NCBI RefSeq assembly: GCF_000020025.1
Contig: NC_010631.1
Span: 150,001 to 182,000, forward strand
DNA length: 32,000 bases
Direction: 5' to 3'
DNA from: Nostoc punctiforme PCC 73102
GTDB taxonomy: Bacteria; Cyanobacteriota; Cyanobacteriia; Cyanobacteriales; Nostocaceae
This document shows, piece after piece, positions 1,603-19,976 of the stretch (its first letter is position 1; each line of letters begins with the position of its first letter). The translations under genes were made by a program, and so were the position numbers. Below the pieces are notes generated by a model. The model made no database searches, was not told where the DNA came from, and saw only the letters and a list, made by a program, of their open reading frames with translations.

Positions 1603-1681
1603 GTTTTTAAAGTTATCTACTCAACCCAAAAGCGCTTTATATCTTTTTAAACTCCCTACTTTACTCGTGGCTCTCAAATCT

Positions 1682-4432: not shown

Positions 4433-4487
4433 GTTTTTAAAAGTTAGGGATTTCCAAGAAATAAATTATCTATTAAATAACACTAAT

Positions 4488-7400
4488 ATGATCCAACTGC
4501 ACCTGCACCGTCTGAAATTAATCCTATTGCTGTGTTTATCATTGTCTTCAGAAACAGTCAGCGCCAATCCCAAACCGATACCCGGCCTCTTAACCCCACC
4601 CCTGCAACTGAGAACTCAAACCAACACCTCAGACACCAACCGCGCTGCGGCTGAAAAAGCAGAACAAGAAGCCGGACAATTAGGTAAACAGAAAGCACCC
4701 TTATTAACCAAAATCATTCCTAAATGGGAAGAAGCCCTAAAATATTGGCGTTTAGCAGGCGATCGCCAAAAAGAAACCCAAACTCTCGACAGAATCTCTA
4801 AATTATACTTGGCTCGGGGAGAATTCCCCAAAGCTTTAGAATATGCTCAGAAAGCGCTACCTATTTGTCAAGCTTTAGGCGATCGCGACTGTGAGGGAGC
4901 AGTCACTGGTTCACTTAGCCTGAGCTACCAGAACATGGGTGAATATGAAAAGGCGATCGATATGCAGCTGCAACTGCCATTCTTTTTTCCCAAAACTGCC
5001 GATTTGCCACCTGCCGTTTTTAGTTCAGTTGGACAGATTTATGATAATTTAGGGGAAAAACAGAAAGCACTTGATTATTACAACAAAGCTTTGGATTTCT
5101 GGAAAGAAAAAGGTGATGTCGTCAAACAAGCTGAAAGACTCCAAAATATTGCTTTTTTTCACGTGTTCTTAGGTGAAATAGAAAAAAGTATTGAAATTAT
5201 CAAGCAAGCTAATAATCTAGATCCAGAATTTAAGAGAAATGAAAGCAACTACAATGCGTTTTACGTTTCGTTACGTAGCACAAGTTGTTCTGATAAATTA
5301 GCATCAATAAAAAAGCCTCCTAAAATTGAGAAATTAGATAATTCTTCTAACCAATCAGCAAGCACTAATTCTGCCGCAGCTACCAAGAATAATATCGAAA
5401 GTTGGAAACAAAAAGTTCAACAATATCGCACACAAGAACTTCTTAGAGGTGAAGCGGGTTTTCTAGAACTCCTTGGCGGTCTGGAATACAAAAGAATTGG
5501 AGAATATAAAAAAGCCCTTGAAGTTTATCAACAAGCACTCGAACTGAGACAAATAATGGGCGGTAAGCCCAGGGAAGCCGAGACACTTACCAATATTGCT
5601 GATATTCTCAACCGACAAGGGAAAAAACAAGAAGCGATTAATGTCCTCAATCAAGCGTTAGACATTCAACGTCAGATTAAAGCTCGTCCAGCACAAGCAG
5701 ATACTTTGTTGACTCTCGGTGATGTTTACTTGTCTTTAGGGGCATATCCTGAGAGTTTAAATGTTTATAATCAAGCATTATCCACCTCAAAAATTATTGG
5801 CAATCGCAGCCGTGAAATTGATGCTCTCAGGAGGATTGGTGATGTTTATCGCAAGTCGCAAACATACCCACAAGCTCTGAGTTATTATCAACAAGCCTTG
5901 TCTATATCCAAAAATACAGGAAACTGTAACCAAGAAAGCACTTTACTATCGAGTATTACTCAAAATCACTTTGCTGCGGGAGATTATCAACAAGCAATTA
6001 ATTTTGGCAATCAGGCTTTAGCTTTATCTCGTAATTTAGAGATTGATGAGTATAAATTAGCCTTAGAAGCAAGGACACTTGATATATTTGCTAAAGTTGA
6101 AATTAAACAAGGAAATTATTCCAAGTCTCTAGAATCCTCTCAAAAAGCTAGAAAACTGGGGCGAGAATCAGGTTTCAGGGAAATAGAGGCAAGAGCGATC
6201 GCCGCAACTGCTGAAGCTTACGAAGCCCTGAAACAACCAGAGAAAGCTATACAAGCTTATCAAGAACAACTTGCTCTTTATGCTCAAATGGGCTTAAGTA
6301 CTGAACAAGCCCAAAGTTACTACAATATCGCCAAACTGCAACGCCAAAACAACCAATTACCAGAATCCCTCAGTGAAATAGATAAAGCAATCGAAATCAT
6401 CGAAAACATCCGCAAAGAAGTCGTTAGTGAAGATTTAAAAACTTCCTTTTTTGCCACAGTACAGGATTATTATCAACTGAAAATCAACATTTTGATGGAA
6501 CTGCACAAAAAAGACCCATCAAAAGGATACAACGCTCTTGCCCTCGACACCAGCGAACGCTCCCGCGCCCGCAGTCTGCTAGAACTCCTGACTGAAGCCC
6601 ATGCAGATATCCGTAAGGGGGTAGATCCAAAACTCTTAGAAGAGGAACTTAGTGTACAGCAACAAATTGATGCCAGAAGGAAAATCCGGATTGAACTCTT
6701 ATCAAGTAAAAAAAACTCAGAACAAGTAGATGAATTAAATAAAGAAATTGAAGAGCTTTCAGAGAAATATCAGCAAATTCTAGCTTCTATCCGCGCTAAA
6801 AGCCCGGTTTATGCAGCAATTACCCAACCTCATCCCCTGACACTCGCAGAAATTCAATCCTCAGTTCTTGATGACAACACTATTCTTTTACAATATTCTC
6901 TTGGTAAGGATCACAGTTATCTTTGGTTAGTGACAAAGACGGGAATGAAAAGTTATGAACTACCCAAAGGTGAAGATATTGAAACGGCAGCTAAGAAATT
7001 TTATCAAAATATCAAAGGTGGCAGGGAATTATATTCACGAGGTGGAATTACAGTTCAACCTGGAATAAACGCTGGAAATCCTGAAAAAGTTGCCACTAAA
7101 TTAAGTCAAATGTTGTTACAGCCTGTAGCGCAGGAATTAGGAAATAAGCGATTGTTGATTGTGGGTGATGGAATTTTACAATATATCCCCTTTGCGGCGT
7201 TGCCAAATCCAACACAAACAAAATTACAACCATTGTTAGTAGAACATGAAATTGTGAATGCGCCTTCGGCTTCTACAATTTCGGTAGTAAGGAATGAAAC
7301 TAAAAACCGCAATGTAGCTGTGAAAAAATTAGCTGTGTTGGCAGATCCGGTATTTAGTAAAGATGACGATCGGTTAAAGCCAGATGTAACTCAAAGTGTT

Positions 7401-8066
7401 CAAAATAGAGGTAAAAATCCCAACTTTACTGAATTAAATACTTTAGCAATGAGGCGTTCTAGCTGTGATTCAAATTTTAGCTTTCCTCGCCTTGAAGGGA
7501 CGCACACAGAAGCCACAAATATTTTGAGTTTAGTTCCTAAATCATTAAGCAAATCAGCTTTTGATTTTGATGTTAATCGTACTACCGTAACGAATCCAGA
7601 AATGAGTCAATACCAAATTGTACACTTTGCAACTCACGGATTTTTCGATACTAACAATCCTAAGTGTTCTAGTGTAGTGCTGTCTTTGGTAGATTCAAAA
7701 GGAAATGCTGAAGATGGTTTTCTTCAACTTCAGGATATTTTCAACCTCAACTTACCAGCAGAATTAGTGGTGCTAAGTGCTTGTGAAACCGGACTTGGAG
7801 AACAAGTAAAAGGTGAAGGTTTGGTGGGGTTAACAAGAGGGTTTATGTATGCAGGTAGTCCAAGAGTTGCTGTTAGTTTGTGGAGTGTAGACGATCAAGG
7901 AACAGCAGAATTAATGACGAAATTTTACACAAACATGCTTAAAGATAATTTACCATCTGTAGCCGCGCTGAGGGCTGCACAATTAGAAATGTGGCAAAGT
8001 CCCAATCCCAACTATTCTCAGACTAATGTCTGGGCGGCTTTTACTTTACAAGGTGAGTGGCGATGA
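4488..8066 (+). CDS. Large TPR-repeat CHAT-domain protein with signal-peptide-like N-terminus
   Basis: ORF 4392-8066. I prefer the ATG at 4488 (MIQLHLHRLKLILLLCLSLSSETVSANP), which lies after the upstream stop. Degenerate TPRs are followed by a C-terminal CHAT signature (HFATHG...LSACETG...WAAFTLQGEW). More divergent than genes 1 and 2. Confidence 0.9.
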   Translation: MIQLHLHRLKLILLLCLSLSSETVSANPKPIPGLLTPPLQLRTQTNTSDTNRAAAEKAEQEAGQLGKQKAPLLTKIIPKWEEALKYWRLAGDRQKETQTLDRISKLYLARGEFPKALEYAQKALPICQALGDRDCEGAVTGSLSLSYQNMGEYEKAIDMQLQLPFFFPKTADLPPAVFSSVGQIYDNLGEKQKALDYYNKALDFWKEKGDVVKQAERLQNIAFFHVFLGEIEKSIEIIKQANNLDPEFKRNESNYNAFYVSLRSTSCSDKLASIKKPPKIEKLDNSSNQSASTNSAAATKNNIESWKQKVQQYRTQELLRGEAGFLELLGGLEYKRIGEYKKALEVYQQALELRQIMGGKPREAETLTNIADILNRQGKKQEAINVLNQALDIQRQIKARPAQADTLLTLGDVYLSLGAYPESLNVYNQALSTSKIIGNRSREIDALRRIGDVYRKSQTYPQALSYYQQALSISKNTGNCNQESTLLSSITQNHFAAGDYQQAINFGNQALALSRNLEIDEYKLALEARTLDIFAKVEIKQGNYSKSLESSQKARKLGRESGFREIEARAIAATAEAYEALKQPEKAIQAYQEQLALYAQMGLSTEQAQSYYNIAKLQRQNNQLPESLSEIDKAIEIIENIRKEVVSEDLKTSFFATVQDYYQLKINILMELHKKDPSKGYNALALDTSERSRARSLLELLTEAHADIRKGVDPKLLEEELSVQQQIDARRKIRIELLSSKKNSEQVDELNKEIEELSEKYQQILASIRAKSPVYAAITQPHPLTLAEIQSSVLDDNTILLQYSLGKDHSYLWLVTKTGMKSYELPKGEDIETAAKKFYQNIKGGRELYSRGGITVQPGINAGNPEKVATKLSQMLLQPVAQELGNKRLLIVGDGILQYIPFAALPNPTQTKLQPLLVEHEIVNAPSASTISVVRNETKNRNVAVKKLAVLADPVFSKDDDRLKPDVTQSVQNRGKNPNFTELNTLAMRRSSCDSNFSFPRLEGTHTEATNILSLVPKSLSKSAFDFDVNRTTVTNPEMSQYQIVHFATHGFFDTNNPKCSSVVLSLVDSKGNAEDGFLQLQDIFNLNLPAELVVLSACETGLGEQVKGEGLVGLTRGFMYAGSPRVAVSLWSVDDQGTAELMTKFYTNMLKDNLPSVAALRAAQLEMWQSPNPNYSQTNVWAAFTLQGEWR

Positions 8067-8270
8067 TGTGAGGTGAGATTATGAAGATTCTGACTGGAGT
8101 TTAGTTCAAGGGGTGTTTCTCAAAGTCTTGTCCTGTATGGCTTAGAGTTGCCTCCTGACCCAGTAAGGTAGGGAAGAGTGTTTAAGAGATTTGAATGCGT
8201 TAGGGAAGCTTAACGAAGTTATCGCCGCAGATTGTGTGTAACGGAAAAATAAGCATTCCAGCTTGATCAG

Positions 8271-8319
8271 TGCGGCCACTTTATCCTTTACAAACGGCCA
8301 TGTTATCCTTTAAGTGACA
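8271..8319. repeat. Orphan Tn7-like transposon end of the element-C family
   Basis: tgcggccactttatcctttacaaacggccatgttatcctttaagtgaca matches the tniQ-distal end of element C (29382-29430) at about 44 of 49 positions, in the same orientation, and ends in the ...GTGACA tip. No partner end or transposase gene lies next to it. Confidence 0.75.
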
Positions 8320-8407: not shown

Positions 8408-9088
8408 TTATTGGTGGTAGGAAGGGGAGCTTTTCACCCAGACATTATGGTTGTGATAAAAATCACCACGCTGTTCTAGTGTAAACCCACCCAGCAATAG
8501 TCCTAACCATACTTCTACCATCGGCATTTGCAACACACGTTGCAGTTTAACCAAAGAAATCTCATCTTTGACATTGATCAGGTAATTAGCGATTGCACTC
8601 TGCCATTTTTCCACATCTTCATCTGATGCCAAATTGCGGACATCTTCTAAAGTTGTCACCTCATCGAGCATTGCCAAAACATTCGCTTTTTCAACAGGTG
8701 CTGCTACAGAATCACCCAACTCAGTAGGATATGAAAATTGGTGTGGGCCATGTGATCTAAAGGTTTGTGGTATTTCCGGTTCAATCAAATCATCTAAATC
8801 AAGGTGCATTATTGTCCGCACTAATCCGGCAAAGATATCAGTACTGATAATTGGCCCATCAGTATCGTTTTGAGCGCGTACATCTTCTAAGATTGACTCA
8901 GCACGGGATTTGAGAATATCTGCGATTTGATAAAAGGCTTCTGCTGCGGTAGATAACTGTGCTTCTGTTGATAAATTCTCAAGCTCAGTATCCAAACATT
9001 TCCACACCGGAGCTAGTGTTGATGTTGGCGGAGCAACCGACATTTCATCTAGCACATCCCAGATTGTTAATTGGCGATAGGTAGCCAT
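8408..9088 (-). CDS. Hypothetical acidic protein (226 aa)
   Basis: Clean 226-aa ORF. Its start lies 2 nt after the stop of the upstream ORF 9091-9558, which suggests an operon. I recognise no family. Confidence 0.6.
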   Translation of the reverse strand: MATYRQLTIWDVLDEMSVAPPTSTLAPVWKCLDTELENLSTEAQLSTAAEAFYQIADILKSRAESILEDVRAQNDTDGPIISTDIFAGLVRTIMHLDLDDLIEPEIPQTFRSHGPHQFSYPTELGDSVAAPVEKANVLAMLDEVTTLEDVRNLASDEDVEKWQSAIANYLINVKDEISLVKLQRVLQMPMVEVWLGLLLGGFTLEQRGDFYHNHNVWVKSSPSYHQ

Positions 9089-9090
9089 AG

Positions 9091-9558
9091 CTATAAATCT
9101 GGATTTAAGGGGCAGGGTCGCACAGGGCAGTGGGTTGGGCTAATCTCGAACATATCCTTGTATTGATATAGTGAGATGGCATATTGGGATGCAAAAGCCT
9201 GCAACACCTGATCTGTATAAGTGCGTATTTTACCAGCCGTTAACCCAAAGCAATGAATTGGTTCTAAGCGACAAATAGGCTGTTGTCCAAGCCACAGTTC
9301 TGCGCCCAAGGCGTGCAATGGCTTATCCCCAGGTTCTTTATATAGATACAACACAGCAACATATTTTGCTGGCGGTTCGACGGTGATGGCATCTAGTTGC
9401 GCGGAATTATCATCGGTTCGACGACGGTAGAAGGAGCGGCGATTATGGCAAACTTTAGGATTCCAGCATCCATCCCCATTTGTCCCATGCAGCACCTTGG
9501 CTTTAGCCGTTGGCAACTTGGCACATAACTGGCACTTAGGATCTAATGGTTTGGGCAT
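9091..9558 (-). CDS. Hypothetical Cys-rich protein (about 155 aa)
   Basis: ORF 9091-9612. I prefer the ATG at 9558 (MPKPLDPKCQLCAKLP...) because the first 18 codons of the longer ORF read through the heptamer repeat tract. The N-terminus has CxxC...C...CH spacing suggestive of metal binding. No family recognised. Confidence 0.55.
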   Translation of the reverse strand: MPKPLDPKCQLCAKLPTAKAKVLHGTNGDGCWNPKVCHNRRSFYRRRTDDNSAQLDAITVEPPAKYVAVLYLYKEPGDKPLHALGAELWLGQQPICRLEPIHCFGLTAGKIRTYTDQVLQAFASQYAISLYQYKDMFEISPTHCPVRPCPLNPDL

Positions 9559-9564
9559 AGAGTG

Positions 9565-9595
9565 AGGGTGTGGGGTGTAGGGTGTAGGGTGTAGG
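9565..9595. repeat. Heptanucleotide tandem repeat (GGGTGTA-type)
   Basis: gagggtgtggggtgtagggtgtagggtgtagg. It is inverted relative to the tracts at 9849-9879 and 10239-10267. Confidence 0.9.
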
Positions 9596-9718
9596 CAATG
9601 AGAAAGAATCACACCCTGCTACGCTCTACTTTCAAGAGATCGAATTAAACCCAGTAGAATTTTGCCAACTAATTTACACTGATTAATAACTGGATTTATC
9701 ACAAGCCCCGTTGGGGCG

Positions 9719-9755
9719 GGGTATAGGGTATAGGGTGTAGGGTGTAGGGTGTGGG
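9719..9755. repeat. Heptanucleotide tandem repeat (GGGTATA/GGGTGTA-type)
   Basis: ggggtatagggtatagggtgtagggtgtagggtgtggg. Confidence 0.9.
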
Positions 9756-9761
9756 AGATAA

Positions 9762-10184
9762 TTAGCCCCAACAACCAGTAGGACACAAGCCCCGTCTTTC
9801 AGGACGATTGCATTGGTGGGGGTTCCAAGCCCCGACCAATGCTGTCTTCCCTACACCCAACACCCTACCCCCCACACCCTTCTTCATGACTTCAGCAACA
9901 GCTAATGCTACACGAATTGAAAGTAAAAGATGAGTTTCAAGTTCTTTCAGGGAACCTTGAGCTATGTATAAAAATTGAATATATTCACCTCTTGTTCTTC
10001 TACCATAACCTTCTGCAATATTAGCTGGAATAGAAACAGAGGCTCTCCTAATTTGTGATATCATGCCGTATGTTTCCTCTTTCGGAAATTGTTTTGTGAC
10101 TCTATAACATTCTTCTGCTAAATTCATAGCTTCTTGCCAAACTTTTAAGTCTTGATACGACTGTATTGACGGTTTATCATTCAT
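9762..10184 (-). CDS. Four-helix-bundle protein (23S rRNA intervening-sequence protein / Avd-like family), native C-terminus apparently replaced
   Basis: The N-terminal ~95 aa (YQDLKVWQEAMNLAEECYRVTKQFPKEETYGMISQIRRASVSIPANIAEGYGRRTRGEYIQFLYIAQGSLKELETHLLLS) are typical of the family. After that the ORF runs through the heptamer tract 9849-9879 and a strong hairpin, so the last ~40 codons look non-native. Confidence 0.65.
   Translation of the reverse strand: MNDKPSIQSYQDLKVWQEAMNLAEECYRVTKQFPKEETYGMISQIRRASVSIPANIAEGYGRRTRGEYIQFLYIAQGSLKELETHLLLSIRVALAVAEVMKKGVGGRVLGVGKTALVGAWNPHQCNRPERRGLCPTGCWG
9849..9879. repeat. Heptanucleotide tandem repeat (CCCTACA-type, inverted orientation)
   Basis: ccctacacccaacaccctaccccccacaccc, the reverse-complement type of the tracts at 9565 and 9719. 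Confidence 0.85.
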
Positions 10185-10238
10185 AATTTATTTAATAAGA
10201 AGACTATATTAAATTTTGCATTCGCTCAATAATATCAA

Positions 10239-10267
10239 CTACACCCTACACCCCACACCCCACACCC
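10239..10267. repeat. Heptanucleotide tandem repeat (CCCTACA/CCCCACA-type)
   Basis: ctacaccctacaccccacaccccacaccc. It lies between the four-helix-bundle gene start and the recombinase stop. Confidence 0.9.
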
Positions 10268-10269
10268 TT

Positions 10270-11277
10270 TTATTCTTCTTCACCGATTGCTCGATAATAA
10301 GCAGCGATCGCAGCTTCTTGTTCACTGCGAAGGGTATAGCGCCGAAACGCTTTCTCGCTTTGATGCCCTGTTAATTTTCGTGCATGGCTGGGGTCAACTC
10401 CCAATAGCAATAAGTCAGTAGCGTAAGTATGCCGAAAGGAGTGAGGATGCAAGTCTTCGATAAGAGCTATTTCACCGATTTTTTCCACAGCGAAGTAAAT
10501 GCCGTGATAACTCAAGCGTTCACCTTTGTATGAAGCATGGTGTGAAATCATCAGTGGGCTGAGACTAGTTAACACCTCACCGCTTTGTTGGCGCGTAAGC
10601 AAATACTGTGCCAAAACTTCTCGGCTTTCCTTTTTTAGTGGAACTAAGCGTGGTTCGTTGGTTTTGGTGTCTGGTAAAAACAGCAGCTTGCCATCAAATG
10701 AGCCAACATTTAGCTGTACAACTTCCCCTGCCCGGAGTCCATGACTGAGAATGTGGACGAGTGCTGTATCTCGTTGCTTTGTTTCTCCCAATAACTCCAA
10801 CGCTGACCAAACCTGTTCCATTTCTTCAGGGGTCAAACTTTGGGCTGGTGGCAGTGGCACTTTTTCCAGTTTTATCCCCAGTGTCGGATTAGTAGAAATA
10901 ATTTCAGGATACGTGTAACACATCCATTTGAAAAAGCTTTTGAGAGCCGCAATTCCTGCGTTGATGCTGCTTTTTGAAAGCGGTTTACCTGCATCAGTCC
11001 GTATTTCATCTCGTAGGTATTCTTTATATAGCGCAAGGTGACGTGGGCGCAGTTCATGATAGTGTAGCTCACTCCAAGCCAAAAACCTTTTGAGTTCGCG
11101 TTCGTAAAGCTTGCGGCTGTTGGGTGCGAGATTGTTGCTGCGTAAAAATTCCAGAACTTTTACCCACCGAATATCGGTTGGTGGTCTTCTAGTTTCTCCT
11201 AGCTGTGTGAAATGTAGAGCTTCACGATCAAGGGGAATGAGTTTGATCTTAGGTAAAGAATCTGCGCTGTAGTTCAT
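10270..11277 (-). CDS. Tyrosine-type site-specific recombinase/integrase
   Basis: 335-aa ORF with an N-terminal SAM-like core-binding region and a catalytic region: HGLRAGEV (Arg), HSFRHTYATDLL (HxxR), LTGHQSEKAFRRY (His...Tyr). Confidence 0.9.
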   Translation of the reverse strand: MNYSADSLPKIKLIPLDREALHFTQLGETRRPPTDIRWVKVLEFLRSNNLAPNSRKLYERELKRFLAWSELHYHELRPRHLALYKEYLRDEIRTDAGKPLSKSSINAGIAALKSFFKWMCYTYPEIISTNPTLGIKLEKVPLPPAQSLTPEEMEQVWSALELLGETKQRDTALVHILSHGLRAGEVVQLNVGSFDGKLLFLPDTKTNEPRLVPLKKESREVLAQYLLTRQQSGEVLTSLSPLMISHHASYKGERLSYHGIYFAVEKIGEIALIEDLHPHSFRHTYATDLLLLGVDPSHARKLTGHQSEKAFRRYTLRSEQEAAIAAYYRAIGEEE

Positions 11278-11337
11278 CCAGTTTTGTGTAAATTATTAAG
11301 TATTAAGTATTAAATATAATCCTGTATTGATTTGAGA

Positions 11338-11661
11338 TTATTCATCTGGTGGTGAGGTAGTCATGACTTCTACGACGGTACGATCATGACCGGTTAGTGC
11401 CTGCTCCCATGTAGAATAACGCTGCATTCTCCCGTGATGAGGCCCGCCTAAAACCATCGTTTCAAAAAGCAACGGGGGATCTCCAAAAGTGAGATCGAAT
11501 CCCGAAGAACTAGTTGATACTTTGGCATCCCCAACTATAGTTTCGGCAACTAGATGTTTTAGTGAATCTTGTACTGAGTGTAAATAATTTTGCCACTCTG
11601 ACAACGAATTAACAGCAACAGGGGTATGTCCTACTAGTTTGTAATAAAGCATGATTGACAA
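11338..11661 (-). CDS. Small hypothetical protein (107 aa)
   Basis: Clean ORF directly upstream of, and co-oriented with, the recombinase. The motif LLFETMVLGG...RYSTWEQALTGH resembles small phage-associated hypothetical proteins; this is from memory, not a search. Confidence 0.5.
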   Translation of the reverse strand: MSIMLYYKLVGHTPVAVNSLSEWQNYLHSVQDSLKHLVAETIVGDAKVSTSSSGFDLTFGDPPLLFETMVLGGPHHGRMQRYSTWEQALTGHDRTVVEVMTTSPPDE

Positions 11662-11795
11662 CTTGTGGCTATCACAACAAAATTTTACACGATTTTATAC
11701 AAAGTAAAGTAATCCTTTTGCTACCTCATAGCTCTCTATTGACTAATATATGCTCAATCGGAATAGTGGCAAATATTCTGCATTTTGCATCATGT

Positions 11796-12131
11796 TTATT
11801 CCACAGCAAATCCCGATAGTTGGCGCATTTTAGGAGTATGAAAGCCGATAACAATATCTTGTTTATCTATACCCATTTCCATTAATTCTAAAGCAATATC
11901 CGCTTCCGTTGTATTTTGTTGAATCCAAATTTTATTATTCTTGATATCTAAGTGCATTATTGGCCCGTAAATCCGATGCTGATTATTCCATCCAACGCTA
12001 ATAATTTGATAATGGTCATGTTCTTCATCAAAAATTTGTTCTACTTCTACATCTCCGTAACTAGGCTTGTACTGGAGATGTTTAGTTAAGAGTTGCCTAA
12101 CTTTTGTCCGATATTCATTTAATTTATCCAT
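11796..12131 (-). CDS. xisI: XisI family protein
   Basis: 111 aa. YRTKVRQLLTKH...DHYQIISVGWNNQHRIYGPIMHLDIKNNKIWIQQNTTE...IVIGFH is characteristic of XisI. The start overlaps the xisH stop by 13 nt. Confidence 0.9.
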   Translation of the reverse strand: MDKLNEYRTKVRQLLTKHLQYKPSYGDVEVEQIFDEEHDHYQIISVGWNNQHRIYGPIMHLDIKNNKIWIQQNTTEADIALELMEMGIDKQDIVIGFHTPKMRQLSGFAVE

Positions 12132-12532
12132 TGTTCTATTGCCTCCGTTTCCACATTATAAATAATTAACTTCAATTTGTTTTCATTGACTACAGTTTGG
12201 ATAAAAGACAAGTTAAAGAAGTCGTTATAAGTTACCAATGGTACAGCTAAATATAAGTTTCTATTTGGCTCTTCAACACGCAACGCTGTTCGATAATTAA
12301 TAAATTGTCCTAGCGCCATGTGAAATTCAGAAATTTTTGAGGCACTCACAAAATTTTTGATTTCAACTGCTATTTTTTCTCCTGCTTTTTCGGCAGCTAG
12401 AAGTCGCTCTGCACCTAAATCAATTTGAACATCAACCCCGCCACATCTAATATTGAGCGGATCATCTGTAATTACCCAACCCTCTTTTTCTAATGCAGAC
12501 CTCACTATATTGTGGAATAAATCACGAGCCAT
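12119..12532 (-). CDS. xisH: XisH family protein
   Basis: 137 aa. MARDLFHNIVRSALEKEGWVITDDPL...DLGAERLLAAEKAGEKIAVEIK is characteristic of XisH. It forms the usual xisH-xisI pair. Confidence 0.9.
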   Translation of the reverse strand: MARDLFHNIVRSALEKEGWVITDDPLNIRCGGVDVQIDLGAERLLAAEKAGEKIAVEIKNFVSASKISEFHMALGQFINYRTALRVEEPNRNLYLAVPLVTYNDFFNLSFIQTVVNENKLKLIIYNVETEAIEQWIN

Positions 12533-12541
12533 AGTTTTAAT

Positions 12542-12580
12542 GAAGTCGGAAGTCGGAGGTCGGAAGTCGGAGGTCGAAAG
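12542..12580. repeat. Heptanucleotide tandem repeat (GAAGTCG/GAGGTCG-type)
   Basis: gaagtcggaagtcggaggtcggaagtcggaggtcgaaag. It is the inverted partner of 13079-13111. Confidence 0.9.
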
Positions 12581-12594
12581 TAAAAATGTGTAAC

Positions 12595-13050
12595 TCAGAT
12601 GGGGGGTATTGCTTTCGAGTTCACAGTAGTTGTCAATTCTGAGTGCTTATCTCTTGCAACCACTATCTTCCTACTGCGAAGTTTATTGCCATTTAATCTC
12701 TCTTTAATTTTGCGTGTAGAGGCTACGAGTATCTTTACCATCTCATCAGCTTCCTGAAGTAAAGAAGAAAATTTAGCTTTTTCTACAACTTCAGACTCAA
12801 TTAAAATTTCTAGCCAATATTCAGTTTCGCGCGCTTCCTTTAAAGCGATTTCCATCTTATGCAAAAAGTCTTTATCAGACTGAGCCGAACGTGACTCCCG
12901 TATATTTGCACCAACACTTGTTCCAGAACGCAACAGTTGCTTTGATAGAGTGCGGCAAATACCTGGTTTTTCGTCCAGAAAGCTGCAAGCTTTGATGATT
13001 CTAATTGCAAACGCCTTACTCCTGTCAGCAATCCCAACATTTTTATCCAC
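12595..13050 (-). CDS. Four-helix-bundle protein (23S rRNA intervening-sequence protein / Avd-like family)
   Basis: 151 aa. KAFAIRIIKACSFL...LSKQLLRSGTSVGANIRESRSAQSDKDFLHKMEIALKEARETEYWLEIL is typical of the family. Confidence 0.85.
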   Translation of the reverse strand: MDKNVGIADRSKAFAIRIIKACSFLDEKPGICRTLSKQLLRSGTSVGANIRESRSAQSDKDFLHKMEIALKEARETEYWLEILIESEVVEKAKFSSLLQEADEMVKILVASTRKIKERLNGNKLRSRKIVVARDKHSELTTTVNSKAIPPI

Positions 13051-13078
13051 AACTGCACCTACTCCACTTCCATATTTT

Positions 13079-13111
13079 AACTTCCGACTTCCGACCTCCG
13101 ACCTCCGACTT
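13079..13111. repeat. Heptanucleotide tandem repeat (CTTCCGA/CCTCCGA-type)
   Basis: aacttccgacttccgacctccgacctccgactt, the reverse-complement type of 12542-12580. Together the two tracts bracket the 12595-13050 gene. Confidence 0.9.
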
Positions 13112-13218
13112 GAAAATAATATAGCACGTTAAACACAAAATAAGTAACCCTTATCTTTTATCCGATATAAACTACGATTAAAATACACGAACCCCAGTGT
13201 AGAGGAATAAAAAAGTTC

Positions 13219-13555
13219 TGTCGGTTTGCAGACTAAATGAAATTTGTGCGGACTAAGTGAAATTTTGTTGCAGACTAATTGAAAATCTGCTTGTGTAACC
13301 CTCATTCTTTCGTAATCCCAGAGCGTAGGCGTAGCCCGCCGTAGGCATCGCTACTTACAAAGTTTTGCTTCAAAGCCTTGTGCGGTAATAAATTGGGACG
13401 TTTTATGTCCATTTTGTGGAAAATTTCATTTAGTCTGCGAATTTAGGGGGAAAATTTCACTTAGTCCGCGAAAAAATTTCATTTAGTCTGCAACAAAGGT
13501 TCCTCAAACCCTTATTATTACGTTGAAAAAATTTCATTTAGTCTGCAAACGCACA
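13219..13555 (+). mobile_element. Non-autonomous mini Tn7-like element (MITE-like), copy 1
   Basis: Tips are TGTCGGTTTGCAGACTAAATGAAATTT and its inverted partner AAATTTCATTTAGTCTGCAAACGCACA (25 of 27 match). There are three direct 19-bp sites TGCrGACTAAnTGAAAwTy at 13227, 13247 and 13269, and four inverted copies at 13421, 13452, 13474 and 13529, which is the Tn7 3+4 end architecture. No ORF. The flanking duplication is GTTC, or AGTTC if the last A is counted as flank. Confidence 0.85.
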
Positions 13556-13649
13556 GTTCAACAATAAATAATAAAGTCCAACAATAAATAAAAAAGTTCT
13601 ACAATTTCTGGATGTGCATGGTCTGGGCAGATCCAGAAAGGTAAGCTTT

Positions 13650-14471
13650 ATGGCCAGAGGTAGGCAGGAGTGGACTCAAGCCAAGTTTGAACGCTACATC
13701 AAAGAAGGTCGCGGTCAAGGTAGTGGAGAGAAGTATAAGCCTTGGATCACTGTCTCCGATTTCTCCTCAATGGGCAGATCAGCAAGAAGCCCTGGTTGGA
13801 AGACCAATCGGGTGCATCATTTCTTATCAGACCATGAGCGGCGGCTGTTTTATCTGTTCGAGTGGTCAGATATTGTCGTAGATATCAGGGAGCAATTCCC
13901 CCTGCTCAACCTAGACTTATGTACGAGTATCGCTAGTGACATGGGAGTGAAATACCCCACTGACCCAGTTAGTGGTATACCTTACGTTTTAACTACTGAC
14001 TTCATGCTAACAGCCAATAAATCGGGTAAGTCAGTTCAAATTGCTCGAACAGTCAAACCATCTTCAGATTTGGAAAAAAAATCAGTAGCTGAGAAATTTG
14101 AGTTAGAAAGACGCTATTATGCTGACCAAAATATTGACTGGGGAATTGTAACAGAAAAAGAAATTCCCAGGCTTTTAGCTCTGAATATTGAGTGGATTCA
14201 TTCTTCCTACTCATTAGAAGCGACTACCGAAATGGCAGTTGAGGAACTACGAGGACTCTCAAGTATTTTAAAGTCTCGGCTCCAAAAAAGTAGTGCCACT
14301 ATCAACAAAGTGACAACAGCTTTAGACAGAGAAATGAATATAGAATCTGGGACATCACTAATGCTTTTTAAGCATCTGATTGCCACCAAAGAAATATTGA
14401 TGGATATGGAATCAACCAAAATATCTAGCTGTCCTTCAGTTCAAACAATTCAAAAAATTATTATTAAGTAA
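13650..14471 (+). CDS. tnsA: TnsA-like transposition endonuclease
   Basis: ORF 13614 (GTG)-14471; the ATG at 13650 (MARGRQEW) is preferred. YKPWITVSDFSSMGRS...VHHFLSDHERRLFYLFEWS...IREQFP...YVLTTDFML fits the TnsA N-terminal nuclease layout. It is the first gene after the element's end. Confidence 0.85.
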   Translation: MARGRQEWTQAKFERYIKEGRGQGSGEKYKPWITVSDFSSMGRSARSPGWKTNRVHHFLSDHERRLFYLFEWSDIVVDIREQFPLLNLDLCTSIASDMGVKYPTDPVSGIPYVLTTDFMLTANKSGKSVQIARTVKPSSDLEKKSVAEKFELERRYYADQNIDWGIVTEKEIPRLLALNIEWIHSSYSLEATTEMAVEELRGLSSILKSRLQKSSATINKVTTALDREMNIESGTSLMLFKHLIATKEILMDMESTKISSCPSVQTIQKIIIK

Positions 14472-14492
14472 TAGGGAATCAGGAAAAATTGA

Positions 14493-16721
14493 ATGAATAA
14501 TAATTTATTTGTCAACGACCTCATAGAATGGATAGACTCAGACCCTCCCAACTTGATTGAGAGAGTTCTGTGGATTGATTCTGGTTATAACATTGCCTTT
14601 GTTTTTGATATAAATGCCAAGAAAGGGTTTCCCGAAGCGAAAAAAGTTTCAGAAATAAGAGTTGCAATTCATACAGAACAAGCACTGAAGCTTAAACAAG
14701 ACCCTTGGGCAAGGCATTTGAGTGATGAAGATTTAACCAAGATACAAAAAGATTATAGAGAAAATGCTTGGTCACTAATTTCATCCCTGGTTGAAAAAGA
14801 ACCGGACATATACTATCGTTCGTCACGGGGTTCGCTTATCAAGCAGGTTGTTGAACAATATAACCAGGGGAGAAGTGAAAATAAATTAGTCGAAAAAACA
14901 GTTTATGAATATTTGAGAAGATTCTGGCAGAGAGGGAAAAATCAAAATGCGCTTTTACCTGACTATTCAAATTGTGGAGGTCTCGGAAAGCCCAAAAAAT
15001 GTGGAGAAAAGAAACGAGGAAGACCAAGAAAATATGCCCATGAACCAGAAATTGGTGTAGGGATTAATGTAACAGACGATGATCTGAAAATTTTTAGAAT
15101 TTCCATAGCCAAATTTTACAACAATGACAAACAGAATTCTTTGAGGACTACTTATAAATTAATGATTAGGGAATATTATTCATCAGATATTCGTTATGAC
15201 GAAAATGGGGTAAAAAAATCCCTATTAATTCCCCCCGAACTTAGGCCGACATTCACTCAATTGAAATATTGGTATGAAGTCGAACTATCAGATATCAAAA
15301 AAAGTATTACAGAACGAAAGGGAGCGAAAAGATTTGCTTTGGAGCATAGAGCAATTTTAGAAACATCTAAGATGGAAACCATTGGGCCCGGTTCTAGATA
15401 CCAAATTGATGCCACAATTGCAGATGTATATTTGGTTTCTAAATACAACTCTAACTGGATTATTGGCAGACCAGTAATTTATGTAATCATTGATGTTTTC
15501 AGCCGAATGATTGTGGGGGTTTATGTTGGTTTAGAGGGGCCTTCTTGGACAGGAGCAATGATGGCTCTAGCTAATGCAGCCACAGATAAAATACAGTTTT
15601 GTCAGGAATATGGCATTAATATTTCCTCTACAGAATGGCCTTGCCACCATCTGCCAGATGCAATTTTGGGCGACCGAGGCGAACTTGCAGGGATGGCAGT
15701 AGAGACATTAATCCCAAATCTCAATGTCCGAATTGAAAATGCTGCACCTTACCGTGCTGATTGGAAGGGTTTAGTAGAGAGGTACTTCCGTACAATTCAT
15801 GGTCATGTCAAACCATTTTTACCCGGTTATATAGACACAGATTTTAGACAAAGAGGGGGGCGAGACTATCGTCTTGATAGCAGAGTTAACATAGAGCAGT
15901 TTACTGAAATTATTATCCACTTAATTCGCTATCACAATAATCATCATTACCTGGCCAGTTATGATAGGGAAGAAATGATGATTACTGATAATGTAAATCC
16001 CATACCCATAGAATTATGGAAGTGGGGGATAGAAAATCGTTCTGGTAGACTCAGGACTTTTCCTGAAGATATAATCAAGCTAAATTTGATGCCAAATAAT
16101 AAAGCGACCATCACCGCTCGTGGCATCAAATTTAAGGGAATGTATTACAGTTGTGAGAAGGCATTGAAAGAATTCTGGTTTGAAAAAGCTAGAAGTAATT
16201 TGCTCTCCAAATCAGATAAATTATTAGATATTTCTTACGACTATCGCAAACCCAATTTTATCTATGTCCGCTCTCCTGATGGTAGAGATTTTGAGAAGTG
16301 CTTCCTTTTAGATCCAGAAGAGCGTTATTCTCAGAAAAATATACATGATATTGAATATTTACTCGCTTATGAAGAGTGGCTTTATCAGAAAAGTCAAGGC
16401 AATGAACTTCAAGCTTGTGTTGACTTAATAGCTGACATTGAAAGTGTTGTCAACAGAGCTAATGATTTAGCCTCTGTAACTGTTGATAATAGGGTAAGTG
16501 ATAACCAAAAAGTTGCTGGGATTAGGAGAAATAGAGCTTCAGAGAAGGCTAAACGACGCGACTATGAGGGGTTCGAGTTAGCTAAGAGAGAAACTCCTAT
16601 TCCTGAGACAGTTATGCCGAGCAAAAATTCTGACTCTAAAGAAAATAAATCATTACAGCCTGACCATTTGGAGCTTCTGAGAAAGAAGCGCCAGGAGCAT
16701 TTTAATGAACATAGAGAATGA
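14493..16721 (+). CDS. tnsB: TnsB-like DDE transposase
   Basis: 742 aa with an rve-type DDE core: YQIDATIADVYLV, VIYVIIDVFSRMIVGVYVG, ILGDRGELAG, and YRADWKGLVERYFRTIH (Mu/Tn7 family). Confidence 0.92.
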   Translation: MNNNLFVNDLIEWIDSDPPNLIERVLWIDSGYNIAFVFDINAKKGFPEAKKVSEIRVAIHTEQALKLKQDPWARHLSDEDLTKIQKDYRENAWSLISSLVEKEPDIYYRSSRGSLIKQVVEQYNQGRSENKLVEKTVYEYLRRFWQRGKNQNALLPDYSNCGGLGKPKKCGEKKRGRPRKYAHEPEIGVGINVTDDDLKIFRISIAKFYNNDKQNSLRTTYKLMIREYYSSDIRYDENGVKKSLLIPPELRPTFTQLKYWYEVELSDIKKSITERKGAKRFALEHRAILETSKMETIGPGSRYQIDATIADVYLVSKYNSNWIIGRPVIYVIIDVFSRMIVGVYVGLEGPSWTGAMMALANAATDKIQFCQEYGINISSTEWPCHHLPDAILGDRGELAGMAVETLIPNLNVRIENAAPYRADWKGLVERYFRTIHGHVKPFLPGYIDTDFRQRGGRDYRLDSRVNIEQFTEIIIHLIRYHNNHHYLASYDREEMMITDNVNPIPIELWKWGIENRSGRLRTFPEDIIKLNLMPNNKATITARGIKFKGMYYSCEKALKEFWFEKARSNLLSKSDKLLDISYDYRKPNFIYVRSPDGRDFEKCFLLDPEERYSQKNIHDIEYLLAYEEWLYQKSQGNELQACVDLIADIESVVNRANDLASVTVDNRVSDNQKVAGIRRNRASEKAKRRDYEGFELAKRETPIPETVMPSKNSDSKENKSLQPDHLELLRKKRQEHFNEHRE

Positions 16722-18381
16722 GTGGGAATGGGTTAAAATTCCCAACGGGGAATGGGCTGCTGTTGCTAAATACAGAGACCACAAGTTGTCTGAATATAAT
16801 ACAAATCCAATAATTCGCTCTCTTCCTCCTATCTTTTCTAGAGAGAAATTTGTTGAGTATGTGACACGACTTCCGACGTGCAAATCTTCAGAAAGAGAAC
16901 TAGAGCCTCAGTACAGATTTCACTGTATTGAGCGACTATCGAGATATTTTGACCCATTGAATAAAACCGTTGATTTACAACAGGTAGTTTGCGTATTAAT
17001 TATGCAAGGTTATCTGAGGCGAAATCCCTTGCAACCAGAATATGCACTGCGTAGCGGTCAAATTTATCAGGCGGTGCTTTCTGGAGGAGGTTTTAACTTA
17101 GAGGAGTATGTAGATGTTCCCACCTCGGCATCTGGGTTGACAATCATTGGGCCGTCAGGAATAGGCAAGACAACCAATCTCCTAAATATCCTCTCTTTAT
17201 ATCCCCAGGTGATTGTCCATCCAGCTCATAGTGTTTACCAAATTGTTTGGTTGAAAGTTGACTGTCCCCATGCCGGTTCTTTGAAGGGTTTGTGTATCGA
17301 CTTCTTCAGAGCTGTTGACAAATTACTCGGCACTAATAACTTCCAAAAATTTGGGGTAAAACGCAACTCTGAGGATTATATGCTGGCTCAAGTTGCCCAA
17401 ATTGCCCACACCCAACATTTAGGAGTTTTAGTTATCGATGAAATGCAAAATTTAGTAGCAGCCAGAAGAAATAGCTCCGAAATGTTGAATTTTTTGGTGA
17501 AAATGGACAATATTATTGGAGTCCCAGTAATTCGCGTTGGTACAAATGAGGCTTTCCCAATTCTTCAAGGTAATTTTAGAAATGCGAGAAGAGGTGTGGG
17601 AGAAGGGGGAGTAATTTGGGACAGGATGGAAAATAATCGGGAATGGAACTTTTTTATCGAAGGAATGTGGGAGTTTCAGTGGACAAAACAATATATACCG
17701 TTAACTGCAAATATTACCTCGGCTCTATATTATGAAAGCCAAGGAATTATTGATATCGTCATTAAACTCTATAAAATGGTGCAATGGAGAGCTATTGCTT
17801 TAGGGAGCGAAGTAATCACTGTTGACTTGATTCATGCTTGTGCTGCTGACGGTCTGCATCTAGTTAAACCAATGTTAGATGCTATTAGGTCTGGGGATGA
17901 GAAATGGATGATGAAATACAAAGATATTGCTCCATTGGACACAAATCTATACCGCAATAAGTGCTTAGATTCTCTTGAAGAAACAGATTTAGAAGAAGTG
18001 AGGAGATTAGCACGCTCATCACAGAGGATGGGTCACATATCAGCAACGCTACGTCATGTAATTATTGAACTGATTAATTTAGATGTTCCACCTGCTACTG
18101 CCAAGAGTTGTGCCGAAAAAGTTGTTACTCCTCATGGAGAAAATGCAGATAAAAAAGTGCTAATTAAAGAGGCTTATAAACTAGCTTTGCAATGCGGTAA
18201 TATTTCAACAGAGCCAGTTCAGCATCAAGAACGAAAAATAAAACTCCAACCGAAGTATCAGGAGAATGATATCCGAGTTATTGTTGAAAATGCGAAGAAA
18301 AATCAAACTCCAGCTTGTGAGGATTTGAAAGCTTTGGGGATTATTAAAGACCCACTCAAAGACTTTTTTATTGGTGAGTAG
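16705..18381 (+). CDS. tnsC: TnsC-like AAA+ ATPase
   Basis: 558 aa with Walker A IIGPSGIGKTT and Walker B LGVLVIDEMQNL. The start overlaps the tnsB stop by 17 nt. Confidence 0.9.
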   Translation: MNIENEWEWVKIPNGEWAAVAKYRDHKLSEYNTNPIIRSLPPIFSREKFVEYVTRLPTCKSSERELEPQYRFHCIERLSRYFDPLNKTVDLQQVVCVLIMQGYLRRNPLQPEYALRSGQIYQAVLSGGGFNLEEYVDVPTSASGLTIIGPSGIGKTTNLLNILSLYPQVIVHPAHSVYQIVWLKVDCPHAGSLKGLCIDFFRAVDKLLGTNNFQKFGVKRNSEDYMLAQVAQIAHTQHLGVLVIDEMQNLVAARRNSSEMLNFLVKMDNIIGVPVIRVGTNEAFPILQGNFRNARRGVGEGGVIWDRMENNREWNFFIEGMWEFQWTKQYIPLTANITSALYYESQGIIDIVIKLYKMVQWRAIALGSEVITVDLIHACAADGLHLVKPMLDAIRSGDEKWMMKYKDIAPLDTNLYRNKCLDSLEETDLEEVRRLARSSQRMGHISATLRHVIIELINLDVPPATAKSCAEKVVTPHGENADKKVLIKEAYKLALQCGNISTEPVQHQERKIKLQPKYQENDIRVIVENAKKNQTPACEDLKALGIIKDPLKDFFIGE

Positions 18382-18384
18382 TAT

Positions 18385-19722
18385 ATGCTCAGTTTTTTCC
18401 CTACGCCTTACCCAGATGAGATTTTATATAGCGTGTTTGCACGTTATCATGCCAGAAGTGGTAATATAAAGCCTGATGAAACGTTGCAAGAATTGTTCAA
18501 TTCCCGGAATATTATAGTTAGGCCGGACTTACCCTATAACTTAAGTTATTTAATTAAAAATCTTCCACTGCTCTCTCAACATACGTTAGAAAGTCTAATC
18601 CAAAAACATACACTGTACCCCATGTATGCAGTCTTTATGCCTGACAGCAAATCAGCTATTCTGGGTTACATGAAAGGAGAGTTGGGGACATATATTTATA
18701 GAGGAATAGCAAGCTCAGTTTATCTGCCAAAATATTTTAGGTTTTGTCCAAAATGCCTTTTTGAAAACTTGCATACATTTGGCGAGGCATATTGGCATCG
18801 ACTTCACCAAACACCTGGTGTTCTTGTCTGCACAATTCATGATGTTGTCTTAAACGATAGTATTGTACCTATCTGGAATAATCAGTGGTATCAAGTTGGT
18901 ATTGCTAGTTTGGAAAACTGTCCTATATCGAATGTAACGAAAAATTACAGTGAGTCCACTAAGGAGTTATTACGCCTAATTGCATCTGATATTGAGTGGT
19001 TAATGACCTGTGACTTCAAATCGCTTCCTTCTAAGGAATTAGATTGGTTTCATATCCAATATATAGTTTTATTGATTAAGAGGAATTTAGCGACTCTAGA
19101 CCGTCAGGTATATGAGCAAGGTTTACGACAGAAATTTTTGTCTTTTTATGGAAGTGAATTTCTTGAGGCTCTTGGTATAAATGTCAGTAACAATAACATA
19201 AATTTATTTAACATTTTTCGATTGCATTTGGAGGTTTTTGACCCGGTAATGCATCTGCTAATGATTAGATTTTTGAGGCATTCGCCTTCAACGTTTTTTG
19301 CTCGGAAATCTAAATATAAACCTTTTGGTAAGGGGCCTTGGCTTTGTCTAAATCCTGCTTGCGAACACTATCTCCATTCTGTGGTTACGAAGTTAGTGAT
19401 GCTTTTAAGCAATGATCTAGATTCGACCTATTCTTATATAAAAAATCCTATAGGGACTTTTGAGTGTGATTGCGGTTTTCAATATAGTAAGATTGGCGTG
19501 AATTTGACTAAAGTTGATAAGTTTCGATTTGAAAGAATCGTGACGTTTGGTCAATTATGGGAACAAAAGTATTTGGAATTAAATGTTGTTGATAGACTAA
19601 ATTTTCAGCAAGCTGCGTACAACCTTAGTTTTAATTATAGCAAGAGTCCAATGACTATGTTGCGTAAGCTAGAAGCTTTGTGGAAGTCTTTGAATGATAG
19701 TGTAGAAAAAGACGCCGGTTAA
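18385..19722 (+). CDS. tnsD: TnsD/TniQ-family target-selection protein
   Basis: 445 aa. The N-terminus FPTPYPDEILYSVFARYHARSG is the TniQ signature. A CCCH-type zinc finger follows (CPKC...C.IH). It starts 3 nt after the tnsC stop. Confidence 0.88.
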   Translation: MLSFFPTPYPDEILYSVFARYHARSGNIKPDETLQELFNSRNIIVRPDLPYNLSYLIKNLPLLSQHTLESLIQKHTLYPMYAVFMPDSKSAILGYMKGELGTYIYRGIASSVYLPKYFRFCPKCLFENLHTFGEAYWHRLHQTPGVLVCTIHDVVLNDSIVPIWNNQWYQVGIASLENCPISNVTKNYSESTKELLRLIASDIEWLMTCDFKSLPSKELDWFHIQYIVLLIKRNLATLDRQVYEQGLRQKFLSFYGSEFLEALGINVSNNNINLFNIFRLHLEVFDPVMHLLMIRFLRHSPSTFFARKSKYKPFGKGPWLCLNPACEHYLHSVVTKLVMLLSNDLDSTYSYIKNPIGTFECDCGFQYSKIGVNLTKVDKFRFERIVTFGQLWEQKYLELNVVDRLNFQQAAYNLSFNYSKSPMTMLRKLEALWKSLNDSVEKDAG

Positions 19723-19730
19723 TCAGACTC

Positions 19731-19904
19731 TATATTGTTGAACTTTTTTATTCAACTTTCTCGACCTGCGCTCTTCTACATTGGTAAACTGAACTCAACT
19801 GAGGACAGTTATTGTTCAACTTTATTTTTCTGGCATCTGTGATGGATAACCAAAAATTAAGGGTTGTAGCTCTTGAAATTGTTGAACTTTATTATTCCTC
19901 TACA
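19731..19904. repeat. Element A tniQ-distal end with repeated putative TnsB-binding sites
   Basis: ATTGTTsAACTTT-type motifs occur near 19736, 19811 and 19878, and the region ends in CCTCTACA. Confidence 0.8.
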
Positions 19905-19976
19905 CTTGATATACATGTGACTGTAACTGTGACTTACACCATAAGTTGTCCGTAACGGACAGCTTATGGTTAAAAA

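Follow-up and report, generated by a model that had tools for sequence, protein, structure and literature searches.

The contig NC_010631.1 of Nostoc punctiforme PCC 73102 carries, within the 32,000-nucleotide (nt) stretch from position 150,001 to 182,000, two copies of a 337-base-pair (bp) element that has the ends of a Tn7-like transposon and no genes. We refer to the whole of this stretch as the window, and all positions are counted from its first letter. [quoted passage not shown] Family E elements are about 5.1 kilobases (kb) long, carry tnsA, tnsB and tnsC together with a tniQ gene for a protein of 260-270 amino acids (aa), and have no cargo. The parts of the mini are as follows.

13219 to 13555, + strand: copy 1 of the mini, 337 bp, inserted after bp 21 of the tnsA-proximal end of the resident Tn7-like element A
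13219 to 13287, + strand: tnsA-proximal-type end, with the TGT tip and three direct 19-bp sites
13285 to 13413: centre, about 129 bp, not derived from the known autonomous elements
13326 to 13346: 21-nt insertion TAGGCGTAGCCCGCCGTAGGC, placed by alignment, which splits the HIP1 palindrome GCGATCGC between GCG and ATCGC
13421 to 13555, - strand: tniQ-proximal-type end, with four inverted sites and the ACA tip
13215 to 13218 and 13556 to 13559: target duplication GTTC of copy 1, checked against the empty site
29495 to 29831, + strand: copy 2 of the mini, in the same orientation as copy 1 and 10 bp outside the tip (29484) of the resident element B
29491 to 29494 and 29832 to 29835: target duplication ATGC of copy 2; the same site and duplication occur in L056, L001, L034 and plasmid L077/L078

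Both copies start with TGT and end with ACA, the tips typical of Tn7-like elements, as do all of the relatives described below. The left end reads TGTCGGTTTGCAGACTAAATGAAATTT and the right end, as its reverse complement, TGTGCGTTTGCAGACTAAATGAAATTT; over the terminal 27 bp the two agree at 25 positions. When the window was searched for the 19-mer TGCAGACTAAATGAAATTT with up to three mismatches allowed, 14 matches were found, all of them within the two copies and none elsewhere in the window, against an expectation of 0.04 from shuffled sequence. Each copy has three sites on the + strand and four on the - strand. In copy 1, the former lie at 13227-13245, 13247-13265 and 13269-13287, with spacings of 20 and 22 bp, and the latter at 13421-13439, 13452-13470, 13474-13492 and 13529-13547, with spacings of 31, 22 and 55 bp. 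The arrays are asymmetric in the manner of Tn7-like ends, with sites close together on the tnsA-proximal side and wider apart on the opposite one, and lie far above chance. Tips, inverted repeat and the three-plus-four arrangement of sites had been described in an initial annotation made from the sequence, and can be read directly from both copies. That annotation also saw no differences between the copies by eye, and the full comparison agrees, with 337 of 337 columns identical. The identity ends at the tips, except for a single flanking C common to both. A GTGTA found 21 bp to the left of each copy was set aside as chance, since the two positions are not homologous.

The statement that the mini has no open reading frame (ORF) holds in practice: the longest ORF wholly within it is 36 aa, and one ORF of 58 aa exits across the left tip. 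The mini encodes none of the TnsB, TnsC and TniQ proteins that define Tn7-like elements. Its length, below the roughly 600 bp taken as the upper bound for MITEs without coding capacity, its terminal inverted repeats and its target duplications are those of a MITE. Since the mini has no genes while its partners encode all four proteins, TnsA included, we regard it as a non-autonomous derivative rather than an autonomous member of the family.

Autonomous partners and target duplications

Relatives of the mini were collected with a two-site pattern scan over one representative genome per species, and their sites and tips were then mapped. This gave 61 loci (referred to as L followed by a number), all cyanobacterial and mostly from Nostoc and other Nostocales. 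About 18-25 of the elements found are minis homologous to that of the window. Complete minis number 20, including the two in the window; they are 264-363 bp long, align end to end and are most commonly 316 bp, so that the 337-bp form of the window is longer than the basal form of other genomes. Larger deletion derivatives of 900-2520 bp are also present in other genomes. The large elements span 5.07-6.4 kb, in most cases without cargo, and encode a TnsA of 179-226 aa consisting of the N-terminal nuclease domain only, a DDE transposase of about 750 aa, a TniB/AAA+ protein of 338-361 aa and the 260-270-aa TniQ. The corresponding domains (TnsA_N, rve/Mu-transposase_C, TniB/AAA and TniQ) were identified in the autonomous partners L022, L026, L028, L044, L005, L068 and L070. 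Their closest solved homologues are proteins of type I-F3 CRISPR-associated transposons (CASTs), namely TnsB (E = 4e-75 and 2e-67), TnsC (5e-46) and TniQ (1e-18).

The ends of the mini are homologous to those of autonomous elements. The L022-type ends share 92% identity with positions 1-66 and 196-337 of the mini, rising to 100% over the initial 45 bp, and the last 135 bp are likewise 92% identical; the right-end sites of L022 (at 5123, 5154, 5176 and 5231) repeat the 31/22/55 spacing of the mini. Autonomous elements with the same ends are L022, L068, L070 and L005. Genomes with the L022 type are Nostoc S62 bin 9, Nostoc 'Peltigera membranacea cyanobiont' N6 (CP026681) and Nostoc sp. UCD121; the last has both the autonomous L005, whose TnsB is 97% identical to the reference, and the mini L046 in one genome. 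The initial annotation had postulated a fourth, unseen Tn7-like family behind the mini and suggested looking for it with the site motif. Elements with matching ends in related Nostoc genomes bear out the first point, and the search itself recovered both partners and further copies.

A second sublineage of minis (L010, L023, L032, L038 and L049) has ends closer to the L026-type partner. The TnsB proteins of the L026 and L022 types are about 51% identical, and both mini sublineages have the same centre. A BLAST search of plasmids with the mini matched 14 records, and in five the match extends over 80% or more of the mini. Nostoc sp. ATCC 53789 is represented by two conjugative plasmids and PCC 7120 by its plasmid alpha; the minis on plasmids are unannotated or labelled hypothetical.

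Duplications were scored with TGT and ACA taken as the tips. A perfect 4-bp duplication is found in 12 of the 28 paired elements, among them the autonomous L026. The autonomous L068 has the duplication CTTT, and the two plasmid minis of ATCC 53789 (L077 and L078) have ATGC. Four cases were compared with an uninterrupted target, and exactly four bases are duplicated in each:

Window copy 1: A-type end AAAGTTCAACAAT, as read without interruption in L057 and at the other A end of the window
L026: B-type tip TGTGACTTACACC
L033: D-type tip TGTGACTGTAACCATAAGTTTGCC
L068: empty site ACAACACTTTCACCAAC

A 5-bp duplication, in which the last A of ACA belongs to the target, was tried and rejected. It fits only copy 1 (AGTTC) and L026 (ACTTA), and fails for copy 2, L001, L010, L021, L033 and others; the two fits are coincidental and depend on an A that chances to precede the duplication. 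The duplication of the mini is thus 4 bp, and not the 5 bp expected of a Tn7 relative. Family E departs in this respect from Tn7-like elements in general and from its neighbour in the window, element C, which makes 5 bp.

Several observations were made alongside. Family E elements or minis of different subtypes stand head to tail 3-4 bp apart, or nested (L070 5087-5275; L016, L018, L028 and L041), and in N6 one family E element lies inside the end of another, 35 bp from its tip. This stacking suggests target immunity to be either weak or subtype-specific. A further related end type (TGTGGGTTCGCAGATAAGATGAAAT...) recurs beside family E minis in L007, L008, L012, L019, L020, L043 and L078, and is probably another sibling family or mini. 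On the chromosome of Nostoc sp. N6, L070 contains at 10254-10596 a gene-less A-type derivative of about 340 bp with A-type repeats at both ends, into one end of which an autonomous family E element has inserted; a second Tn7-like family thus also seems to have miniatures.

Docking motif and target choice

Every junction was oriented by its element end, and a conserved motif was sought within 120 bp. On the three-site (tnsA-proximal) side, 21 of 47 junctions carry the motif ACACAAAATAAGATACCCTTATCTTTTATCCGATATAAACTACGATTAAAA, and in 17 of these 21 its last base lies 33-41 bp from the insertion point. On the four-site side, none of the 40 junctions carries it. Seen from the motif, 26 copies occur in all loci, of which 21 stand immediately upstream of a family E end. 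Insertion is site- and orientation-specific at a near-fixed distance, as in Tn7-like elements; it is not random, and both window copies belong to one docking site. The window was mapped from Pfam scans and from a reading of transposon ends, and its features outside the mini are listed here.

Up to 8066: CHAT/TPR genes (Pfam)
8265 to 8319: solitary C-type transposon end (end reading)
8408 to 13050, - strand: block of two unknown genes, a tyrosine integrase, XisI, XisH and two 23S-IVP-family genes
13133 to 13183, + strand: conserved docking motif of about 51 nt (ACACAAAATAAGTAACCCTTATCTTTTATCCGATATAAACTACGATTAAAA), the only copy in the window; the tip of element A follows 14 bp after it (+14) and copy 1 starts 35 bp after it (+35)
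13198 to 19904, + strand: resident Tn7-like element A (tnsA, tnsB, tnsC, tnsD), its terminal 21 bp split off by copy 1
19916 to 19927: 12-bp remnant of a D-type tip (TGTGACTGTAAC), preceding element B
19928 to 29484, - strand: resident element B, degraded and of the fused tnsAB type
23866 to 29430: element C, nested in B, with a clean 5-bp duplication CTATT
29832 to 30393, + strand: DNA to the right of the docking locus, sharing 91-95% identity with that beside the family E autonomous elements in L022, L068 and L070

Elements A and B occupy the stretch between the docking motif and copy 2. The context of copy 2, ...CACCAACATGC/ATGCGATCGC..., is the +37 position of the empty site, a position also found in L056, L034, L007, L077 and PCC 7120, and both flanks in the window match flanks of autonomous elements in L022, L068 and L070.

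An early working idea was that family E elements and minis primarily hunt the ends of other Tn7-like transposons, perhaps as transposase-bound or bent DNA, and not a fixed motif. Insertions are indeed found in A-type ends at +21, +24 and +27 (window, L061 and L030), in a B-type end at +9 (L026), in a D-type tip at +17 (L033) and in a sibling family E end at +35 (L070), and copy 2 lies just 10 bp outside the tip of B. The idea was dropped once oriented flanks gave a constant distance to the motif, and we now consider it unlikely. The 33-41 bp to the motif are kept whether the insertion is in a naked site or in an A-, B- or D-type tip, whereas insertions lie anywhere between 0 and 35 bp from the foreign tip, on either side of it, and insertions in naked sites exist (L056, L068 and L077). 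A-type tips themselves lie 13-14 bp and B/D-type tips 19-21 bp past the motif. Given the constant distance to the motif, hits in foreign Tn7-like ends follow from the stacking of several families at a single docking site.

The motif contains an imperfect 11-6-11 palindrome and is multi-copy, on chromosomes as well as on conjugative plasmids (L075 2890-2947; L077 1-83). It stands on the 5' side of minus-strand modules with a tyrosine integrase (window, L025, L073 and PCC 7120 alpha) and is followed by two hairpins, the first of which has a HIP1 site. The motif gave no Rfam match and contains no tRNA, and the reconstructed empty site folds mildly better than its shuffles (z = -1.8). A reading of the motif as the end of a gene (frame ...YPYLLSDINYD and stop) was rejected, since the sequences upstream of it are unrelated between loci. 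In the sublineage with GCAGACAAAGTGAAA-type first sites (L010 1193-1252; L023, reverse strand), a different upstream sequence, GGnTTGATATC[A/G]AnTATTnTAAC, is found about 30 bp from the insertion and may be a second docking motif.

Since both ends keep their site arrays and the mini follows the orientation, distance and duplication rules of the partners, we propose that it is mobilised in trans by L022-type machinery. The mini retains only the cis-acting ends, about 66 bp on the tnsA-proximal and 142 bp on the tniQ-proximal side, joined by about 129 bp of filler. TnsB and TnsA supplied by an L022-type partner elsewhere in the cell would bind the repeats and cut at the tips, and TnsC with the target selector would place the mini about 33-41 bp downstream of the roughly 51-nt motif, with the three-site end facing the motif and a strand-transfer stagger of 4 nt. 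Transposition would be of the cut-and-paste type if the TnsA of the partner is active.

For the window, the simplest history that may be proposed is the following. Copy 2 would have come first, at the canonical +37 of a then empty site. Element A (+14), B/D (+19 to +21) and C within B were probably inserted later between motif and copy 2, which was thereby probably pushed 16 kb away from the motif. The motif would then have been used again, giving copy 1 at +35, now inside the end of A. The window minis form direct repeats at a distance of 16.3 kb, and their outer ends make up a legitimate pair of left and right ends. In principle, family E proteins could move the whole 16.6-kb block, minis included, or recombination could delete it; the outer flanks of the block (GTTC and ATGC) give no sign that it has moved.

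Central segment, copy identity and resident elements

BLAST finds the centre inside minis only and not in any autonomous element, and an origin from the interior of a partner was rejected on this ground. It aligns across the minis of 18 genomes with a mean pairwise identity of 0.71-0.77 (0.77 in its right half), compared with 0.80-0.84 for the ends. The motif GCGTAGGC... that the initial annotation singled out is the 21-nt insertion in the HIP1 palindrome, which accounts for the length of 337 bp as against the basal 316 bp. The same HIP1 carries other insertions in L013, L021, L023 and PCC 7120. An identical 32-nt stretch occurs at an unrelated intergenic spot on plasmid pn2 of Nostoc sp. UHCC 0926, and weaker matches to the insert are found in L009, L002, L052 and L034. 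Small dispersed repeats of Nostocales reportedly come in units of about 21-27 nt in many unrelated contexts, also inside other repeats. The insert resembles these.

The centre is most likely non-coding filler common to the whole mini lineage. The initial annotation had left the choice between a small RNA and filler, and only the latter is favoured by the searches: the centre has no Rfam match, no promoter match and no excess folding (z about -0.2 on both strands), and a single weak terminator-like hairpin, so that a small RNA, promoter or terminator finds no support. It is improbable that the mini is kept for a function of its centre, be it a small RNA, an outward promoter or occupancy of the site conferring target immunity against full-length family E elements. 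The sharing of the centre by two mini sublineages with such divergent partners, the identity of its right half and the frequent placement of minis at the canonical +37 would fit such a function. Against it, conservation is lower in the centre than at the ends, several different insertions and deletions are tolerated there, and the side-by-side stacking of family E elements (L016, L018, L028, L041 and L070) speaks against strong immunity.

We think it very improbable that the mini is an immobile relic which never moved as a 337-bp unit and which arose through internal deletion where it stands or through a duplication, whether segmental or of assembly. That the window has no transposase for it, that the copies are only 16 kb apart and that deletion derivatives of 900-2520 bp exist in other genomes would be in keeping with a relic. 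However, the flanks of the two copies differ, a separate 4-bp duplication accompanies each of them, and the centre, absent from autonomous elements, is found in the minis of about 18 genomes at different chromosomal and plasmid sites. Presence and absence with precise empty sites has, moreover, already been seen between species. The junction is confirmed by independent assemblies, as six independent SRA-derived contigs reproduce window positions 13526-23894 at 99.99%. The longest of these contigs begins within the last 30 bp of copy 1, a place where a short-read assembler would be expected to break, at a repeat. An assembly duplication, raised earlier as an explanation that would undo the case, is excluded by the differing flanks, the separate duplications and the independent contigs taken together. 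The suggestion of very recent activity fares less clearly: it is plausible for copy 1, with no differences and a duplication of its own, but the identity could also be explained by gene conversion.

Mobilisation by a transposase encoded in the window (that of A, B or C) has a negligible probability: these elements are physically adjacent and A looks intact, but their end repeats are unrelated to the GCAGACTAAATGAAA sites of the mini (A AACAATAAATAAAAAAGTTC, B CCATAAGTTGTCCG, C AAGGATATTGTGGCCG), as the initial annotation had recognised, their TnsB proteins are only 21-26% identical to that of family E, and C makes 5-bp duplications.

A number of points weigh against mobilisation of the mini by a family E partner. 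The case for transposition comes from sequence comparison, and the roles of the proteins, movement in trans and the order in which the elements arrived are inferred. Gene conversion, and not recent transposition, could account for the sameness of the window copies. No family E gene lies within the 32,000-nt window, and no partner was traced in the source genome among SRA-derived assemblies, the samples with L022-type TnsB proteins being different from those of the window; two JGI metagenome scans for the L022 subtype gave 0 matches. With one to three loci per representative genome, and two copies in the window, the mini seems unlike classical MITEs. In alignments, the TniQ of family E has no evident DNA-binding or C-terminal extension. 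Finally, 16 of the 28 paired elements have no duplication, so that tabulating duplications across copies, as had been suggested, returns the 4-bp rule for only part of the set. The missing duplications are tentatively attributed to recombination between stacked copies. L061, L027 and L022 look like recombinants of same-orientation copies stacked at one site, and the window minis could likewise delete the 16 kb between them.

Copy 1 sits between the first and second binding repeats of element A, with the tip and first repeat of A (TGTAGAGGAATAAAAAAGTTC, 13198-13218) on one side and repeats 2 and 3 (AACAATAAATAATAAAGTCC and AACAATAAATAAAAAAGTTC, 13556-13600) on the other. Element A is probably crippled by copy 1, since its terminal 21 bp are now 341 bp from the rest of the end array. 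The own flanks of A (CCCAG and CTTGA) show no 5-bp duplication, and each represents a different version of the site spacer. In element B, tnsAB is one 907-aa gene in the SRA-derived contigs (a single gap difference) and two ORFs of 576 and 324 aa in the window. Element C, 5.6 kb long and without cargo, encodes a fused TnsAB of 883 aa, TnsC and a TniQ of 528 aa.

The solitary C-type end at 8265-8319 (...CCTTTAAGTGACA) faces right, lies 200 bp past the CHAT/TPR genes and is 85-90% identical to the ends of C. The CHAT/TPR block (1-8264) may be cargo of a further Tn7-like element with core genes to the left of the window. Within this block, seven tandem 120-bp units (61-90% identical) occupy 2090-3109 inside a 948-aa ORF (1586-4432), and large segments are duplicated between the CHAT/TPR genes (1-1017 and 2846-3847, 81-84% identical). 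The two 23S-rRNA-IVP-family genes, at 12595-13050 and 9762-10184, are each bracketed by heptamer-type tandem repeats (12550-13111 and 9566-10184, respectively). The first has inverted arms at 12550-12593 and 13068-13111, and the second GGGTGTA-type runs at 9566-9616 and 9719-9769. The gene at 12595-13050 looks like a cassette between xisH and the docking motif, as L068 and L073 have no called gene there.

Relation to known systems and significance

Family E and the type I-F3 CASTs (Tn6677, PseCAST) have in common the TGT and ACA tips and multiple TnsB sites. Family E differs in having no CRISPR-Cas genes, a TniQ of about 265 instead of about 395 aa, a 4-bp duplication and a cyanobacterial distribution. 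Type I-F3 CASTs make 5-bp duplications. Like classical MITEs derived from insertion sequences, the mini is small and non-coding, has inverted repeats and a target duplication, and depends on an autonomous relative; unlike them, it has asymmetric arrays of three and four sites, inserts in a site- and orientation-specific way and seems to be of low copy number, at one to three loci per genome. Derivatives of the Tn402/Tn5053 family without tni genes, which include many class 1 integrons, rely on related machinery of the TniA/TniB/TniQ type; those that are defective yet retain the two ends are mobilised in trans, with insertion targeted beside sites of other mobile elements ('res hunters'). In contrast to the mini, they carry cargo, are kilobases long, make 5-bp duplications, have no TnsA and form no 0.3-kb lineage.

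Ends alone can suffice for mobilisation: mini-elements built in the laboratory with roughly 150 bp from either end are moved in trans (PMC11014353, PMC9881144). As in the mini, the mini-Tn7, mini-Tn6022 and mini-CAST donors consist of two cis-acting ends of about 70-155 bp each around a spacer, with TnsA, TnsB, TnsC and a target selector provided in trans (PMC11014353, PMC9881144). Those donors are engineered, whereas the Nostoc mini is natural and markerless, forms a lineage over Nostocales chromosomes and plasmids, has a 4-bp duplication and has ends of 66 and 142 bp. Among natural elements, partly deleted copies of cyanobacterial Tn7-like elements that target CRISPR arrays occur as identical multiples, for which mobilisation in trans has been suggested (Chacon Machado & Peters 2025, PMC11837452). 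These elements are, like family E, cyanobacterial, cargo-free and minimal, with a shortened target selector, but they have a fused tnsAB, kilobase-sized derivatives with gene remnants and a CRISPR repeat as target (PMC11837452). Family E has a separate tnsA, a derivative of about 0.3 kb without coding remnant and a motif of about 51 nt as target. We considered whether family E is this published group and rejected it on account of their fused TnsAB.

Full-text literature searches returned no natural MITE of the Tn7 family and no 4-bp duplication in a Tn7-like element, which is not proof of absence. We put forward, tentatively and with slightly more doubt than confidence, that family E is an undescribed Tn7-like clade that combines 4-nt end joining, homing together with at least two other families to a multi-copy motif of about 51 nt, and a long-lived MITE lineage. 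The mini alone would be a modest novelty; the surprise for the specialist lies in the 4-bp stagger and the shared multi-copy docking motif. The 5-bp duplication is treated as a hallmark of Tn7 relatives, which are prized for precise, programmable insertion. A transposase related to those of type I-F3 that leaves 4 bp would provide a comparison from nature that bears on the way in which the stagger is set by the strand-transfer complex, and the mini would show the minimal natural ends that the machinery accepts, 66 and 142 bp with three and four sites.

The findings also bear on annotation, since family E elements are at present unannotated or labelled 'hypothetical protein' and also break short-read assemblies. 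If our reading is correct, the ends of the minis follow one or the other of two partner subfamilies with TnsB proteins of about 51% identity, the centre remaining common to both, and minis in the same orientation would drive deletion of the DNA stacked between them. The motif at the edge of tyrosine-integrase modules, on chromosomes and plasmids, would then serve as a docking site, 'safe and mobile', at which transposons come to be stacked. That several unrelated Tn7-like families use it in one orientation and at a fixed distance points to an attachment site of Nostocales so far unrecognised, which conjugative plasmids and the model strain PCC 7120 carry as well.

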